Source of the DNA: a virus
Length of the DNA stretch: 64,000 bases
UHGV virus genome: UHGV-0072281
Direction: 5' to 3' (one strand)
Shown: piece after piece, positions 4,664 to 62,977 of the stretch
Layout of the letters: each line of letters opens with the position of its first letter
Numbering within the stretch: the stretch's first letter is position 1
Made by a program: the position numbers and the translations under genes
Notes under the pieces: model-generated
Told to the model about the DNA's origin: nothing
What the model saw: the letters and a program-made list of their open reading frames with translations, nothing else
Databases searched by the model: none

Positions 4664-4847
4664 TTGGTGGCGTCAGTTACTAAGCGTTTTAGGCTTTAGC
4701 GTCATGGTGCTGGTTGCCATTCTGTACGTGCTATTTTGTATAACGGCGATTTTATGGGTGGTCTTAGCGTACGCGATTAGGCTCACCTGGGGTTCAATTT
4801 GGCACCAACGCGAATGTGAGTGGCGGTGTGTTGGAGGGAAGTCATGA
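4647..4847 (+). CDS. small membrane protein (66 aa, TTG start)
   Basis: hydrophobic core VLGFSVMVLVAILYVLFCITAILWVVLAYAI; GAGGGAG RBS; overlaps end of upstream gene. Confidence 0.35.
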   Translation: MSTQTDWWRQLLSVLGFSVMVLVAILYVLFCITAILWVVLAYAIRLTWGSIWHQRECEWRCVGGKS

Positions 4848-4954
4848 TTGAGGGTATTCTGTTAACACTTGGGTCGTTGTGGATTATTGGGAAATCCCTC
4901 AACTGGCTGATTAAAAAGCACGGATGGGCTTTCAAAGGCTCTACGTACAGTTAA
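4844..4954 (+). CDS. tiny membrane peptide (36 aa)
   Basis: hand-translated MIEGILLTLGSLWIIGKSLNWLIKKHGWAFKGSTYS; GGAGGG RBS 5 nt upstream; not in ORF track (too short). Confidence 0.25.
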   Translation: MIEGILLTLGSLWIIGKSLNWLIKKHGWAFKGSTYS

Positions 4955-4960
4955 GTTAGA

Positions 4961-4993
4961 ACCCCCTCCTGGGTAACTGGGAGGGTGTTTTAC
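4961..4993 (+). terminator. hairpin terminator (ccctcc...ggaggg + TTTTAC)
   Basis: inverted repeat read from sequence. Confidence 0.4.
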
Positions 4994-5005
4994 GAGGGAA
5001 GAACT

Positions 5006-5134
5006 ATGACTGTTGTCAATACTACCAATGCTGCAATCGGCGCTTTATATAACGCGGAACTAACATGGGGTGCGGGTTTTATTACCGTACTGCTTCTCGC
5101 CGCAGCCGCTTTTATCATTGGACGTTGGTTTTAA
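5006..5134 (+). CDS. tiny membrane peptide (42 aa)
   Basis: hand-translated MTVVNTTNAAIGALYNAELTWGAGFITVLLLAAAAFIIGRWF; GAGGGAA RBS. Confidence 0.25.
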   Translation: MTVVNTTNAAIGALYNAELTWGAGFITVLLLAAAAFIIGRWF

Positions 5135-5166
5135 TTTCATCTTTTTGCGTCTGTAAGGTCTGATAA

Positions 5167-18656: not shown

Positions 18657-18662
18657 TACACA

Positions 18663-18694
18663 CCCTAGCTTCGGCTAGGGTTACTTTATATTTA
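18663..18694 (+). terminator. rho-independent terminator (ccctagc ttcg gctaggg + T-rich)
   Basis: 7-bp stem, TTCG loop. Confidence 0.55.
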
Positions 18695-18715
18695 ACCATT
18701 TTAGGAGAATATACC

Positions 18716-19648
18716 ATGTATTTGTACAAAAGTAAAAAAGTAAAAGGTATTAAAGACTGCCTTAGACAAATGGGGAGTCAGCATCTAGAAAATGTCATGG
18801 AAGAAAATCAAACAAAAGAAAATCCTGTCTCGAAATGGATAAAAAAGAATCGTAATCATCTAACCAATAGCTTTATACCGTATAATGAAGATTTAGGTCT
18901 CAAAGATCCACGTTCCCTTCACGCTCAAACATTGGCAATTGGATGGCTATACGGTGGTTCTTCCTTAATATCCGATCGAGCACTTAGAGAACTTGTTTTT
19001 GAGACTGAGATGCCCAGTAAATTCCCTGAAGAGTGGTTAGACTTTATACCTACTTGGACTGTAGCAATCGATGTAGGTAAAGAAGATGAGACTTTCTTTC
19101 TCGGCTATCGAAAAAATGGGAAGAGAAGGTTTATTATAATTGCTACAAATACTGATTACGGGTTAACAGAAGGCGTTACCACGATTGCCACTTGTTCGTT
19201 AGAGCTTCGTAGTGCAGGAAACGGACTTGTGGAAATCGACTATGCCGACGGTGTGGAGAACGAACAAGAAAAGATGCTATGGTTATCTCTGGCCAAAGCC
19301 GCCACATCGATGATATTTCTGTGCACCCTAATCCCACCTAATCTCAAAGCGTCTTACAATGACGTTAAGTTCAAAGAAATCAAAAAGAACGGCAGTATTA
19401 GCTACGAAGTCAAACCACGTGAACGTGATGTTAAAGTGGATATCACACCAGGACAAGTAAAATATCTGAAAGGATTCAACACCGACTTGAAAGCCATGCA
19501 AGGTATCAAACACGCTAAAGCTGCGCACATTCGTCGTGCCCACTGGCGTAGATACTGGGTTGGCCCAAGAAACGGTGAAAGAAAAAGAAAACTTTGCTGG
19601 ATTCCACCGACATTTGTTCGCGGCTACGTACCCCACACGCAAGACTAG
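18716..19648 (+). CDS. hypothetical protein, paralog family B, conserved basic C-terminal HIRRAHWRR motif
   Basis: C-terminus KAAHIRRAHWRRYWVGP...W.PP.F; internal LGWLYGG..ISD segment shared with next gene. Confidence 0.55.
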   Translation: MYLYKSKKVKGIKDCLRQMGSQHLENVMEENQTKENPVSKWIKKNRNHLTNSFIPYNEDLGLKDPRSLHAQTLAIGWLYGGSSLISDRALRELVFETEMPSKFPEEWLDFIPTWTVAIDVGKEDETFFLGYRKNGKRRFIIIATNTDYGLTEGVTTIATCSLELRSAGNGLVEIDYADGVENEQEKMLWLSLAKAATSMIFLCTLIPPNLKASYNDVKFKEIKKNGSISYEVKPRERDVKVDITPGQVKYLKGFNTDLKAMQGIKHAKAAHIRRAHWRRYWVGPRNGERKRKLCWIPPTFVRGYVPHTQD

Positions 19649-20560: not shown

Positions 20561-20607
20561 CCCCTAGACCTTGTGGTCTAGGGGTAGCTTTTACTTTTTA
20601 TTTTTTG
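20561..20607. terminator. bidirectional terminator (cccctagacc ttgt ggtctagggg + T-run) between convergent genes
   Basis: perfect 10-bp stem; T-run overlaps stop of minus gene. Confidence 0.6.
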
Positions 20608-21353
20608 TTTGCCTTCAGAGCTTTCAGGCGTTCAGCCGTCACGTTCAGACATTCAATCAATTCGTTCACCTGTTTCATGAACAAACCAAACAGTTCAACC
20701 CAATCGGATGCAAAGTCTAACATCGCTGTCAGTTCTTTTGCCACGTTAGGATGAATGTTTTGTTCAGACAGAATCGTTGCAGAGGCTTTAATAGACTCGA
20801 TGGATTTGTCGATGTTCGTACGAAGTTTCTTCGTGATTTCAACGTTCAGTGCTTTTGCGCGGTTAAACGCAATATCGATCTCCGTAGCACTGTGGTACGT
20901 TTTCTCAATCGGGCGCTGGTCAATAACGTTGTTGGTGTAAGACTTAGCCAACTGGTTAACCAGGTCTTTCGGATTCACGTTACGTAACGGAATGTTAACG
21001 TTTTTATAACGGAAACCGATAGGTAATGACAGTACGCCCACATCATGTGTAAGGGCGGAAAGTTGCAACTCAACAGGTAAAAGGACACCGTCGTAGATCT
21101 TCTGTAGGGAACTCCACACCGATTCTAAGCGGTTAATGTGATCCATTACATAGGTATTGAAGCCTGGCGGTACAATAACCAACATGCCTGCAAAGTGTAA
21201 GAATTTTTCCTGTTGCATCCACTTGGAAACGTCTGACATGTCGTCGTAAGTGGTTAATGCAATCTCTTGTTGAGGGCCACTGAACCCTTTGGGTAAGATT
21301 GCAGACGCTTTAGCGGCAAAGCTAGTTAACGCTGCAAGTGGATTTACGTTCAT
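20598..21353 (-). CDS. hypothetical protein
   Basis: 251-aa minus-strand ORF, divergent from the recombinase operon. Confidence 0.5.
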   Translation of the reverse strand: MNVNPLAALTSFAAKASAILPKGFSGPQQEIALTTYDDMSDVSKWMQQEKFLHFAGMLVIVPPGFNTYVMDHINRLESVWSSLQKIYDGVLLPVELQLSALTHDVGVLSLPIGFRYKNVNIPLRNVNPKDLVNQLAKSYTNNVIDQRPIEKTYHSATEIDIAFNRAKALNVEITKKLRTNIDKSIESIKASATILSEQNIHPNVAKELTAMLDFASDWVELFGLFMKQVNELIECLNVTAERLKALKANKK

Positions 21354-21450
21354 TTAAAACCTCGGATTATAAGTCAGGGTTACATAGTAAAGTCTTTTTA
21401 CAGTTCATCCTGAACTTATGACCGAGATTATCTCACAAAGGTAAAGCTCG

Positions 21451-21750
21451 ATGAAAATCAAATTACTGACTCGAAACACCACGCCTCGTCTGGAACCGGA
21501 AATCTATCTTACCCCGGTGAAAAAAGACAAAGAAGGTAAGCCTATTCAAGTAGGTAAGATTCTTAGCGTGACCTCTTTACCTAACGGTAAGCGCGTGATG
21601 GAATTAGAAATCGACGAGCGCAACAAACGTCGTTTCGAGTCTATTGAGAACCCCTATCCTGAAAAATCGGAAGAAGTCACCGAGTGGGCAGAGACCTACT
21701 TTGAATTCTGGCACAAACGTCGCCTTCTTCTTCCGACCAAGAATCGTTAA
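21451..21750 (+). CDS. hypothetical small protein
   Basis: 99-aa ORF preceding the recombinase. Confidence 0.45.
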   Translation: MKIKLLTRNTTPRLEPEIYLTPVKKDKEGKPIQVGKILSVTSLPNGKRVMELEIDERNKRRFESIENPYPEKSEEVTEWAETYFEFWHKRRLLLPTKNR

Positions 21751-33649: not shown

Positions 33650-33666
33650 TCGATGAGGTTGGTTGT

Positions 33667-33837
33667 ATGGAAGAATTAGAGACAGTTTCCTGTTACATTC
33701 CTAGAAGACGCGTTATAAAAGAATGTTACATCGATAAAATTTTAATCTCTCGTATCAAGAAAGGTCCACGAAAACATCGAACCAAGAAAGTGTTTATTTA
33801 TAAACACTTCGAAAAGGTTCTAATCCGACCTTACTGA
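33667..33837 (+). CDS. tiny basic protein with KKGPRKHR motif (paralog 1 of 3)
   Basis: hand-translated MEELETVSCYIPRRRVIKECYIDKILISRIKKGPRKHRTKKVFIYKHFEKVLIRPY; GAGG RBS. Confidence 0.35.
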   Translation: MEELETVSCYIPRRRVIKECYIDKILISRIKKGPRKHRTKKVFIYKHFEKVLIRPY

Positions 33838-33865
33838 TTAAATTAACTCATGGAGTAAATTTGTT

Positions 33866-34063
33866 ATGCTGAACGATGTTCTTAGTTTCTCGATAATGTA
33901 TTTCGAACCGAAGAAATTCCGTACCATTGTTACACGTTGTCGGAAAGGGCCGCGTAAAGGACGTAAACGTTTCCAAGTAATTCAACTTTCTTATTCTGCG
34001 CTCCTTGAAGCTAACCCATTCGAGATGAAACCTAATGAAGAAACCGGATTTACTCAACATTGA
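33866..34063 (+). CDS. small basic protein with RKGPRKGRKR motif (paralog 2 of 3)
   Basis: IVTRCRKGPRKGRKRFQV aligns with ILISRIKKGPRKHRTKKVF of the preceding ORF. Confidence 0.4.
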   Translation: MLNDVLSFSIMYFEPKKFRTIVTRCRKGPRKGRKRFQVIQLSYSALLEANPFEMKPNEETGFTQH

Positions 34064-34274
34064 TTACGTGATCGGCGGTATAATCCTCGTCGGATATGCC
34101 CGCAAACGTAAAGGGCCCGGCAGCAACAAATTCTTCGGTAAACGTGTTGTAAAATCAATGGCATGTCTCAGACCGCAGAAATATTGGCCCCTAATGTACT
34201 TCAATAGTATGCACGATGCGGCCGACAAACGTATGGCTCTGTGTATAAGAAAATTAGAGGGTAAAAATGACTGA
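34035..34274 (+). CDS. small basic protein with RKRKGPGS motif (paralog 3 of 3)
   Basis: ILVGYARKRKGPGSNKFFGKRVV shares the [KR]KGP[RG] core. Confidence 0.4.
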   Translation: MKKPDLLNIDYVIGGIILVGYARKRKGPGSNKFFGKRVVKSMACLRPQKYWPLMYFNSMHDAADKRMALCIRKLEGKND

Positions 34275-34410
34275 AGAAGTTAAAGTAGAAACCATTAAAG
34301 AATCTGACGAATTTGCAATCCCTGGCTTAGACCCGGAAACAACCGTAGAGAAGGGTGCTGACCCAACTACGGAAGACGATAACTGCTCAGGCGGGGCTTG
34401 CAAAATTTAA
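34267..34410 (+). CDS. tiny acidic peptide (47 aa) ending CSGGACKI
   Basis: hand-translated; GAGGG RBS 6 nt upstream; followed by terminator. Confidence 0.3.
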   Translation: MTEEVKVETIKESDEFAIPGLDPETTVEKGADPTTEDDNCSGGACKI

Positions 34411-34418
34411 CAGTTCAT

Positions 34419-34458
34419 GGGGTGCTTATGTAGCACCCCTAATCCTTATTCTTTTTGT
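34419..34458 (+). terminator. rho-independent terminator (ggggtgct tatgt agcacccc + T-rich)
   Basis: 8-bp stem. Confidence 0.5.
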
Positions 34459-34478
34459 TAATCTAATGGAGTTTTAAA

Positions 34479-57084: not shown

Positions 57085-57756
57085 ATGGAAGCTATCGAAA
57101 TTAACAAATTCTGGGAACAAGTCATTGCTCAATTCCGCGATTTCTATCGCTACACAGACAGCGCCCACCGTATCGACCACATCCAGTCAGTGAAGTCTAA
57201 TGCCATCCGCATTGCTTATCTGCTGGGTGAGTCTAAGCACCTTAAAAATATCCTGGTCGCTGTTGCGGCACATGACATATTCTCAACTAAAGCCGATCGT
57301 GCTTCACATCACATCAAAGCCTTCAACTACGTTCTGGATTCTGCGCCGATTCTAAAACGTCGCTTTAAGCTTACCTGTGATGACATTACCGAGATAGCTT
57401 ACGCGGTACTAGAACATCGCAGTTCACACAAAGGCGGGTACAACTCTATTGTATCTGAAATTGTCGCGGCTGCGGACCGTGGTATCCCTTCTATCGATGA
57501 AGTGAAAAATTACATGTACCGCTCTTACTTATACGCACGTGACCATGGAAAATCCGTTACCGATTCGAAGTTCCATGCGATTCGTCACGTACAAGAAAAG
57601 TTCGGTCGTAATGGCAAATCTCGCGTTCCAGAGTGGTACGAGAAACTCTTCGCGAAAGAGATTCTGGAACGTCAAGAGTACGTAGAGATGCTCGGCCTCG
57701 AGCACTTTACTTTTGAAATCACCAACGACTTAGAAAGTCGTATCCAAAACCAGTAA
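57085..57756 (+). CDS. HD-domain phosphohydrolase (putative)
   Basis: HRIDH ... VAVAAHDIF consistent with the H...HD metal-binding motif. Confidence 0.45.
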   Translation: MEAIEINKFWEQVIAQFRDFYRYTDSAHRIDHIQSVKSNAIRIAYLLGESKHLKNILVAVAAHDIFSTKADRASHHIKAFNYVLDSAPILKRRFKLTCDDITEIAYAVLEHRSSHKGGYNSIVSEIVAAADRGIPSIDEVKNYMYRSYLYARDHGKSVTDSKFHAIRHVQEKFGRNGKSRVPEWYEKLFAKEILERQEYVEMLGLEHFTFEITNDLESRIQNQ

Positions 57757-59951: not shown

Positions 59952-62009
59952 TTAGCTCTCCGTACTGTCGCGACGATAAACTTTGATCGTCGTGTTGAAC
60001 TGCGTCAACAGTACACCGCCTTCAGCTTTAATGTCCAGCGTGATGGAATAGCCGTTAGCTTTGTCATCCGCTGTCATGTACGCACTCGGAGTAATGTTGG
60101 CAATACTATCCAGGCGACCTTCCAAACGCTCGGTGATTTTGTTCTCAATCATTTTCGCGCGTTCGTCGTCCGTCATACGGCTCTCACCGGACATATCTGC
60201 CCAAACTTGATCACTGACACGATAAACGTAGGTCATGATGAAGTTAAACAGTGCGTTATTCAGCACTGAACGTTCTTCGCTATAGATGGACTGAAGTGCT
60301 GGGATGAACAAACGATAGTAGTCGCGGGAACGTGCAGTAACCAGAGACACATCCCAGTCGGATGCGTAAATCTCGTTACCTTTCCACGGCATACTCAGAT
60401 CGTACAGATCTTCGATAATCGTCTCTTCACCACGGCTGAAGCGATAAGCAGGTTTAGCGCGACCTTCACCGGAACCCAAATACTTCGAGAAGAAGTTCGC
60501 GATGCTGTAACACATCGGAACCGGTTTCTTGTAAGAGGAGTTACGGATGTAGGCGTCCTGACCACAAATCATCCCACGGCACGCTGGGGTACCGTAATAA
60601 GACGATTCAGGTACAGACGTGATCATTTCGATCAGCGCTGTTTTCACGTTCTCTTCCGTTTGCAGATCGTTACGACCTTGATTGTAAACGTGGGTGCAAA
60701 GAGTCAGGAACGTGTTACGAGAACGACCGATGAAGTTCGTCAGGGCTTTCTTGGTATCCATGCTGAAGCCGGAGTCCCAGAAGCAACCCAGAGAGTATTT
60801 CAGTTCGTTATCGTAGCGGACTTTACCGCCGTCCGGGAACAGAGACATTTCACGGCGAACCAGTTCGTCGTAAACATCGTTGTTCATGGTCCCGTTACTA
60901 CCGCCTTGCAGGTAGTGGATATTCGAAGCAGAGAAAACAATTTTACCTACTTCTTCAGACGGGTTAACTTGTAAACCGTCGTAGAGCTGACCGGTTAAGT
61001 CAACGCCACCGAAAATATCGACCATATACGGATCGGTAATTGCCGGTTTTGCGTTTTGAATCTTAGATTGGGCCAGTTTCAGCACCGTTTCCAGGTTTTC
61101 ACGGTAGATGTAAAACTCTTCGAACGGGCCGTAATCCGGCAGACCACCGATATCCGGCATCGTCTGACGATACGCATCTGGAACGACGACTTCGAAGTCC
61201 AGCTGGGTGCTCATCGGCTGATAGTATGCATCGGGCTTGAAGCTAACATTGATGCTGCTAAGACCTTTGAGGGTCTTCCAAATCACCGGTGATGTTACCC
61301 CTGCTAAGGTCTCGAACCATTGCAGTGCGTACATACGTCCGCCTACATTCGTCTGATAAGCAGACGCAATAGACGGGCTGGATTTTTCGTTCAGCGGAAC
61401 CAGTTTGAAACCAAATCCGTTGACATCAGAACCCGCGTACGGACCTTTGATATCAAAAATCGGATAGAGTTTTGATTTCGCCTGAGTCTCGGTATCAGTC
61501 ATCGTACCTTCGGTGACGGTGCCCGCTTTTACGTTGCTGACATCATCGATGACGGACAGACGGAAGACGATTTTCAGACCGTCTACCTGTTCTCTGACTT
61601 TCGGCTTACCGCTTACGTCGTACTGAATCACGCCGTTCTCACGCTCATAAGCGGGAACTTTCGTTTCCAGTACGTCAGCAACCAGACGGATAGCTGCGGT
61701 TTTCGCATCATCCGGTACCAGGCGCTGATACATGCAATCGTTACCGTTAGCGTTGAACATCGCCTGGAAAGGTGTGTTAAACGTCGCGTAATCGCCACGC
61801 AGGTCGAACAGATCGCGACCAAGCAGAGACAATGCATTATCCCCGGATAACGGGAACGCCTCGTCGTCTACCCCGCGTGAAGCAAAGGTGAAGATCAGCG
61901 GCTTATGAATCGGATCACCCGTGGGGGTCCGAACAAGCTCAGGGACAGAATTGTCCTGCCACCCCTGCTTGTTATTCAACGGCGCGCCGTTTCGTGGAAT
62001 AAAACTCAT
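59952..62009 (-). CDS. virion structural protein (candidate tail sheath or major capsid; speculative)
   Basis: 685-aa ORF; size and pairing with a 291-aa downstream gene resemble a sheath-tube pair. Confidence 0.5.
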   Translation of the reverse strand: MSFIPRNGAPLNNKQGWQDNSVPELVRTPTGDPIHKPLIFTFASRGVDDEAFPLSGDNALSLLGRDLFDLRGDYATFNTPFQAMFNANGNDCMYQRLVPDDAKTAAIRLVADVLETKVPAYERENGVIQYDVSGKPKVREQVDGLKIVFRLSVIDDVSNVKAGTVTEGTMTDTETQAKSKLYPIFDIKGPYAGSDVNGFGFKLVPLNEKSSPSIASAYQTNVGGRMYALQWFETLAGVTSPVIWKTLKGLSSINVSFKPDAYYQPMSTQLDFEVVVPDAYRQTMPDIGGLPDYGPFEEFYIYRENLETVLKLAQSKIQNAKPAITDPYMVDIFGGVDLTGQLYDGLQVNPSEEVGKIVFSASNIHYLQGGSNGTMNNDVYDELVRREMSLFPDGGKVRYDNELKYSLGCFWDSGFSMDTKKALTNFIGRSRNTFLTLCTHVYNQGRNDLQTEENVKTALIEMITSVPESSYYGTPACRGMICGQDAYIRNSSYKKPVPMCYSIANFFSKYLGSGEGRAKPAYRFSRGEETIIEDLYDLSMPWKGNEIYASDWDVSLVTARSRDYYRLFIPALQSIYSEERSVLNNALFNFIMTYVYRVSDQVWADMSGESRMTDDERAKMIENKITERLEGRLDSIANITPSAYMTADDKANGYSITLDIKAEGGVLLTQFNTTIKVYRRDSTES

Positions 62010-62071
62010 GGAACGTCTCCATATTCAGTCTTTAAGACCTTGAAAAAGGGTCATACTAAGGTATCATACTC

Positions 62072-62977
62072 ATGGCACTCAAAAACGCTTACAACGGCAC
62101 TCCCTTTAATACCATAGACCTTACCCGCTTACACGCGGACTTGGAATTGGCTCGTAAGGTTAACCAAACTGTTGCTCAGTCTGAAGAAGTCCATTACGTT
62201 ATCGAAACAGCCGATGTAAAACCGTTCCCGTTACCTATCGTCATTGGTGATGACGTGTACGTTGACGCACGAACTTTTACGACGCTCGATAAAAACGGCG
62301 AGTTAAAAATTCGTAACCCCATTGAGCACCAATTACGTCTAGACGAAGCACGTTGGGAATTAGTGTGGAAACGGAACAATGATAAGCTCGGTGCGTTGAT
62401 GGCCCGAATGTCTTATCACCATGAGATCTTCAGCAGGTGGATTAGCGATGCGATTGAACACACCTATGCACTTGCTCCATATCAAAGCGGTCAAGTCAAG
62501 GCACTCGCAGCGCTGTTTTCCGTAGGACAGTTCTATAACAACTTCGAAGATGAAGTAAAAATGCTGCGTATGCAGCAGCAGTTGGAACGTGAACTGCGAC
62601 TCTCGCCACAGTTTTTCGAAACCGTCACCGGTAATACCGAGTTTCTGTTCCCGCGTAATATCGGTGAATTCGTTGAGATGGTTAAAGCAGCGGGTATCCC
62701 GCGTCTTAATGAACTGAGCGTGGTTAGCTTGCAGTCAATGCTGGCGACCAGCTTAGGCAGCTACATCAGCTACGACCGCCAGTTGGTGACCAGCGCCATC
62801 GAATATCCGCCATCGCTGTTTGTGATTGTCCGCACCTGTTTAGAAAACTCGGTGTTCAACCGTTCACGTTTGGGTGGGCTGATTAAGAAATGTGACGTGG
62901 CAAAACGTAAAGATGCGTTTACTATCGCTTACGATACATTACTGAACCAGAATACCAAACCCTTAAATATCCAGTAA
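62072..62977 (+). CDS. hypothetical protein
   Basis: 301-aa ORF divergent from the structural gene. Confidence 0.5.
   Translation: MALKNAYNGTPFNTIDLTRLHADLELARKVNQTVAQSEEVHYVIETADVKPFPLPIVIGDDVYVDARTFTTLDKNGELKIRNPIEHQLRLDEARWELVWKRNNDKLGALMARMSYHHEIFSRWISDAIEHTYALAPYQSGQVKALAALFSVGQFYNNFEDEVKMLRMQQQLERELRLSPQFFETVTGNTEFLFPRNIGEFVEMVKAAGIPRLNELSVVSLQSMLATSLGSYISYDRQLVTSAIEYPPSLFVIVRTCLENSVFNRSRLGGLIKKCDVAKRKDAFTIAYDTLLNQNTKPLNIQ

Follow-up and report, generated by a model that had tools for sequence, protein, structure and literature searches.

The 62-nt gap (62010-62071) between two divergent genes in the 64,000-nt stretch of virus genome UHGV-0072281 analysed here (hereafter, the window) holds a 13-nt block, GGTCATACTAAGG, that is probably a TATG-type transcription start signal for the tail sheath gene on one strand, combined with a ribosome-binding site for the opposite gene on the other. 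As judged from comparison of related phages, this would be a promoter of a known type set within a compact divergent late region. What exceeds chance in the gap is the conservation around the first of two TCATACT copies, together with the presence of three sheath-strand TATGs inside 49 nt.

The divergent gap and its flanking genes

The gap comprises the entire space between the two genes, which lead away from it on opposite strands:

59952-62009, minus strand: tail sheath gene, 685 aa (PHROG 3242, tail sheath, E=1.5e-285)
62072-62977, plus strand: 301-aa gene belonging to a family of unknown function (PHROG 3227, E=2.2e-98)

In the annotation of SPN3US, the 301-aa gene is the first of an operon that also includes two virion structural genes and the terminase large subunit. 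The window derives from an SPN3US/phiEaH2-like jumbo phage, with best nucleotide matches of ~77% over 2 kb and an identity to the best matches of ≤84% in the 400 nt around the gap. Since no phage in the August 2025 release of INPHARED exceeded ~84% around the sheath locus or ~77% over 2 kb, and since the window is about equally far from Seoulvirus and Erskinevirus, it is probably a member of a species or genus of SPN3US-like jumbo phages yet to be described. The divergent order of the sheath gene and a gene of ~300 aa is kept from SPN3US-like phages to the distant chimalliviruses Goslar and RSL2. The corresponding gap of Goslar (248-392 of the compared segment) presents TATGAC on both strands.

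Conserved elements of the gap

The gap was aligned across 17 phages including the window, covering Seoulvirus, Erskinevirus, Machinavirus, Wellingtonvirus, and Derbicusvirus, and the following elements were distinguished:

62049-62061, no strand assigned: invariant 13-nt block GGTCATACTAAGG (minus strand CCTTAGTATGACC), identical in 17 phages of five genera
62016-62023, no strand assigned: second invariant element TCTCCATA (minus strand TATGGAGA), in 17/17 phages
62056-62061, plus strand: CTAAGG, Shine-Dalgarno sequence of the plus-strand gene, 10 nt ahead of the ATG at 62072, invariant in relatives
62017-62020, minus strand: GGAG, Shine-Dalgarno sequence of the sheath gene, recognised by sequence, relatives, and the ribosome-binding context of the window
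62036-62052, no strand assigned: inverted repeat GACC-N-GGTC, with invariant arms and variable spacer
62028-62038, no strand assigned: palindrome GTCTTTAAGAC (GTCTT..AAGAC), conserved in four genera and lost in Derbicusvirus

The 13-nt block stays identical while the amino-acid identity of the sheath N-terminus falls to 56-61% (Derbicusvirus), and the intergenic bases next to GGTCATACTAAGG and TATGGAGA vary among the 17 phages. Read on the plus strand, the conserved bases adjoining the first TCATACT copy are the Shine-Dalgarno sequence of the 301-aa gene. Shine-Dalgarno sequences were recognised as purine-rich stretches complementary to the 3' end of 16S rRNA and located 5-12 nt before a start codon; TAAGG lies 10 nt before the ATG and agrees with the window context (C)CTAAGGAG, and the hexamer CTAAGG fits the ribosome-binding context (C)CTAA(A)GGAG that is usual in the window and occurs upstream of many of its genes. 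Part of the invariance of the block is accounted for by this Shine-Dalgarno sequence alone.

The spacer of the GACC/GGTC inverted repeat measures 4 nt in the relatives and 9 nt in the window, where a 5-nt insertion yields GACCTT-GAAA-AAGGGTC, lengthening the inverted repeat and creating a hexamer that resembles a sigma-70 -35 element. The insertion falls within 62040-62048, which reads TTGAAAAAG, and is missing from 16/16 relatives; it was placed according to alignment A1, in which all relatives have gap columns 68-71, and a one-column indel is flanked by 62029/62030. A further inverted repeat, AUGGAgacguUCCAU on the minus strand (62008-62022), pairs the region of the sheath Shine-Dalgarno sequence with bases up to the start codon, and is invariant in the relatives apart from a changed loop in Wellingtonvirus. 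This repeat might hide the sheath ribosome-binding site in a longer leader.

Folding of the gap gave z-scores between -0.2 and -1.4 against shuffled sequences, with weak energies in either transcript, and compensatory changes were found in 0/11 pairs. A structured RNA element was thus not supported, given these weak folds, the lack of covariation, and the absence of any Rfam match at E≤1.

Candidate start sites of the sheath gene

Three TATGs face the sheath gene within the gap:

62052-62055, minus strand: distal TATG, candidate start-site motif of the phiKZ type, invariant in 17 phages and located inside GGTCATACTAAGG
62020-62023, minus strand: proximal TATG within TATGGAGA, invariant in 17 phages, 11 nt before the sheath start codon
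62065-62068, minus strand: third TATG, made by the second TCATACT copy, not conserved

The two invariant TATGs stand in tandem, 32 nt apart, and the gene downstream of them, the tail sheath gene, is a late structural (virion) gene, a class assigned from its PHROG match. The block around the first heptamer would be constrained from both strands. Its minus strand would provide TATG (T62055 to G62052), the start-site motif recognised by the non-virion RNA polymerase (nvRNAP) of the phiKZ type on the non-template strand, at positions -3 to +1; transcription of the sheath gene would begin at G62052 and produce a 43-nt leader starting with GACC. The GGTC within the block, an arm of the inverted repeat, would be read as minus-strand GACC and supply the first bases of this predicted transcript, while the plus strand of the same block would provide CTAAGG, the Shine-Dalgarno sequence of the 301-aa gene.

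At the proximal TATG, the predicted +1 is G62020, which would give an 11-nt leader, GGAGACGUUCC, beginning on the sheath Shine-Dalgarno sequence; other TATG sites with short leaders are present in SPN3US at 234351, 38507, 161426, and 136314. The proximal TATG may act as an additional start site or even as the principal one, and, being an equally good candidate, it may leave the distal (heptamer) site in a secondary role. The SPN3US counterparts of G62052 and G62020 are positions 229224 and 229196. The third TATG, found in two lineages only, is probably irrelevant. Initiation at G62052 and G62020 is what we infer; direct observations are the conserved sequences, the motifs they contain, the orientation bias of TATG across the genome, and the nvRNAP homologs of SPN3US. 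No published mapping of 5' ends for SPN3US-like phages was found in the literature searched. Among the points against the assignment of these TATGs as start sites, the equivalent gap of RSL2 (272-383 of the compared segment) has TATG on the non-sheath strand only, the sheath strand being devoid of it, and the two conserved TATGs compete for the same role.

The main competing explanation, less likely but of some weight, is that the block is kept solely for translation of the plus-strand gene, as a Shine-Dalgarno sequence accompanied by a standby or structural element upstream of it (a GACC-N4-GGTC hairpin), with the minus-strand TATG being incidental and the sheath transcript starting only at the proximal TATGGAGA or elsewhere. 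CTAAGG is indeed a typical Shine-Dalgarno sequence for the window phage, the GACC/GGTC arms are invariant around a variable loop, the insertion in the window extends the stem rather than breaking it, and the proximal TATG is just as invariant as the distal one. However, the Shine-Dalgarno sequence covers only 5-6 of the 13 invariant bases, the remainder being exactly CATA plus GG, the hairpin folds no better than shuffled sequences and lacks covariation, and TATG presents a strong genome-wide sense bias.

The TCATACT pair

The original prediction described the gap as a divergent promoter region and drew attention to a pair of TCATACT heptamers ending at the start codon of the plus-strand gene:

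62051-62057, plus strand: first TCATACT copy (AGTATGA on the minus strand), invariant in 17/17 phages of 5 genera
62064-62070, plus strand: second TCATACT copy, lineage-specific, in the spacer that separates the Shine-Dalgarno sequence of the plus-strand gene from its ATG

Both copies were confirmed at these positions, separated by AAGGTA (6 nt), and the final base of the second lies one position ahead of the ATG at 62072. The designation as a divergent promoter region was also reasonable, given that the genes diverge, that the arrangement is conserved as far as Goslar and RSL2, and that the gap carries conserved candidate start-site motifs. The proposal that the pair is an operator or start-site repeat found no support in this form, the second copy being lineage-specific and the heptamer unenriched: a frequency no higher than random expectation had been named in advance as evidence against the repeat, and the window contains 6 copies of TCATACT where 6.04 would be expected, a count of 6 being attained in 62/100 shuffles of the window. 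Likewise, a 13-mer extended from the heptamer, with ≤3 mismatches allowed, matched the window 10 times against 13.1 expected, and neither sequence recurred elsewhere in the window beyond chance. Local direct repeats (≥7 nt, offset 7-20 nt) are common in the window, which contains 63 of them, compared with 46.6 ± 4.6 in shuffles.

Only 2/17 aligned phages, the window and SPN3US, possess the second copy; the corresponding positions of the other phages read ATCAAACTC, ATCAATCTC, ATCAACTC, AGCATCTC, AATCACCC, or A(A/T)TTTCTC. The second copy is part of a freely drifting spacer between the ribosome-binding site and the ATG of the plus-strand gene, resembling the first by chance in two lineages, and the duplication of the heptamer is, as judged from the alignment and the counts, a coincidence. 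Nor did the link between the heptamer and the plus-strand start codon withstand comparison, as the informative TATG lies in the reverse complement, AGTATGA, and faces the sheath gene instead. The original prediction was partly right: correct regarding a divergent regulatory region, and wrong regarding the element, the strand, and the repeat.

An operator role could also be imagined more broadly, with a phage regulator binding either the two heptamers or the inverted repeats GACC/GGTC and GTCTT/AAGAC and so coordinating both divergent late operons. Short repeats and palindromes are indeed crowded into this 62-nt divergent gap, and an invariance of 13 nt is more than a 4-nt promoter core requires. 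This explanation is nonetheless quite improbable: the second heptamer is missing in 15/17 phages, Derbicusvirus lacks the GTCTT/AAGAC palindrome, the arms GACC and GGTC stand 9 nt apart in the window instead of 4, a shift that a dimer site of fixed geometry would not tolerate, and neither the heptamer nor the 13-mer recurs elsewhere in the window beyond chance.

It is more improbable still that a host sigma-70 promoter, TTGAAA-16-TATCAT, drives the plus-strand gene, with the heptamers overlapping its -10 element. Such a sequence matches the consensus at 10/12 positions (62040-62067, plus strand), but its -35 hexamer originates from the window-specific insertion and is absent in 16/16 relatives, its predicted start would fall at or past the ATG, and phiKZ transcribes without the host RNA polymerase (PMC4666361). 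Overall, the gap is best read as a compact regulatory region between two divergent late units rather than as a repeat that serves as an operator.

TATG as a genome-wide signal

Strand bias was evaluated for all 256 tetramers in the non-coding DNA of the complete annotated SPN3US genome. TATG faced the downstream gene in 68 cases and did not in 24, ranking 1/256 in strand asymmetry, above the Shine-Dalgarno tetramers AGGA and GGAG. Because AATG, CATG, and GATG are symmetric in strand, the bias of TATG does not stem from stray start codons. When the analysis was restricted to intergenic regions of ≤150 nt and the sheath gap was excluded, TATG still ranked first (34 vs 9, p=3e-5). In the short intergenic regions of the window, sense TATGs numbered 6 vs 0, and 3 vs 0 without the sheath locus (p=0.12), a comparison with little statistical power. 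The raw count for the window (17 vs 2) is inflated by the stretches 4664-5166, 18657-19535, and 33650-34478. These are long stretches in which a simple gene call finds no large ORF and several sense TATGs occur; they probably hold small genes.

Intergenic regions of SPN3US and the window were paired by protein orthology to follow the conservation of TATG. Sense TATGs of SPN3US were kept at the aligned position of the window in 7/12 cases (p=0.01), other tetramers in 23%. TATG had the highest retention of all 32 sense tetramers reaching n≥12, although the sheath locus alone contributes three of these seven sites.

The flanks of SPN3US TATGs are weakly informative. The extension TATGACC is found at 5/68 sense sites of SPN3US, as well as at 21417 and 58427 of the window, and 14/68 sense TATGs of SPN3US have TT(T/A)AC 11-30 nt upstream, many of them inside (A/T)TTTACG. 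The arrangement (A/T)TTTAC(G/A)-N13-15-TATG recurs before genes at 57141, 64409, 72658, 92592, 109944, 168864, and 196297 of SPN3US, and at 5005 of the window.

A second divergent pair of genes in the window (20598-21353, minus strand; 21451-21750, plus strand) is separated by back-to-back sense TATGs at 21383 (minus) and 21417 (plus), both conserved with SPN3US 187572 and 187604; the TATG at 21417 begins TATGACC and has TTTTTAC (21395-21401) ~15 nt upstream. In SPN3US, back-to-back TATGs (TCATAcTATGA) are also found at 158704/158709, in GTTCATACTATGACCC, between a virion structural gene and a divergent gene. GTTCATACTATGACCC resembles the block of the sheath gap, but with TATG on both strands. 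The occurrence of TATG in terminator loops was not significant (3/70 in SPN3US, 1/24 in the window), the loops being mostly of the UUCG type.

Comparison with phiKZ transcription

In phiKZ, TATG is necessary but insufficient for promoter function, and the motif is short. Transcription in this phage, the best-studied relative, is independent of the host RNA polymerase (PMC4666361). Its late promoters consist of 5'-T(-3)ATG(+1)-3', all four bases being needed for transcription by the nvRNAP, with flanks that carry little information (PMC4666361; PMC7598289), and in a cryo-EM structure the beta-like subunit GP123 of the nvRNAP is bound to the four TATG bases on the non-template strand (PMC12809450). 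The middle promoters are characterised by the motif AAanTTACc near -24, some of them also having TATG (PMC4666361).

Homologs of the phiKZ nvRNAP proteins gp55, gp71-73, and gp74 are encoded by SPN3US (E 2e-29 to 9e-39). The window encodes RNAP beta-like subunits according to the PHROG search, not assigned to the non-virion or the virion polymerase, and its nvRNAP genes would lie beyond the 64-kb window. No homolog of GP123 was found among the annotated RNAP-like proteins of the window and SPN3US that were tested.

The sheath gap shares with phiKZ late promoters, such as P119L, a sense-strand TATG just upstream of a late structural gene and weakly informative flanks; the phage group, as represented by SPN3US, also shares homologous nvRNAP subunits, and its TATG is biased to the sense strand genome-wide in intergenic DNA. 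Unlike phiKZ late promoters, the start sites considered here are predicted from sequence, and they belong to an enterobacterial SPN3US-like phage rather than to a Pseudomonas Phikzvirus. The sheath site also differs in being fused back-to-back with the Shine-Dalgarno sequence of the neighbouring gene and in comprising two invariant TATGs in tandem.

The middle promoters of phiKZ are resembled by the SPN3US sites combining TT(T/A)AC and TATG, and by the window TATGs at 21417 and 5005. In contrast, the TATGs of the sheath gap are not preceded by a TTAC-type element, and for this reason their likeness is to late promoters, not to middle ones. With two divergent late units only 62 nt apart, the locus is similar to the divergent promoter regions of compact phages. 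The back-to-back TATG pairs at SPN3US 158704/158709 and window 21383/21417 are comparable arrangements, whereas the sheath gap has TATG on the sheath strand only.

A possible start site for the plus-strand operon

No plus-strand TATG that could serve the 301-aa gene is present within the 62-nt gap. A speculative candidate lies inside the sheath coding region:

61891-61910, plus strand: invariant 20-nt run containing a plus-strand TATG at 61904-61907, speculative start site

Over the opening 450 nt of the sheath gene, no other invariant nucleotide stretch is as long as this run, the next longest being 9 nt. All 14 phages of four genera have it, with the rarer of the two His codons (CAT 20, CAC 55), whereas Derbicusvirus lacks it although the encoded amino acids are the same. 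The TATG at 61904-61907, 165 nt upstream of the ATG of the plus-strand gene, might, speculatively, be an intragenic start site of the plus-strand operon. Face-to-face initiation, in which the sheath mRNA (from G62052) and the terminase-containing mRNA of the plus-strand operon (from G61907) would overlap antisense for ~146 nt, is an unlikely extension of this idea. If true, tail and packaging genes would be linked in their expression through this antisense overlap, by transcriptional interference or an RNA duplex.

Implications for SPN3US-like phages

According to a 2020 review, the middle and late promoters of this class of phages escape bioinformatic prediction (PMC7598289), and the promoters of SPN3US-like enterobacterial jumbo phages are apparently unmapped in the literature searched. 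The sequence evidence gathered here suggests that the TATG start-site code of phiKZ also operates in SPN3US-like phages. This is an extension of known biology rather than a new mechanism, of modest interest and mainly relevant to annotation. The TATG code leaves a detectable strand-bias signature, has been retained at the sheath gene in all five genera, and may be of use in the annotation and engineering of SPN3US-like phages, for instance in the choice of late promoters.
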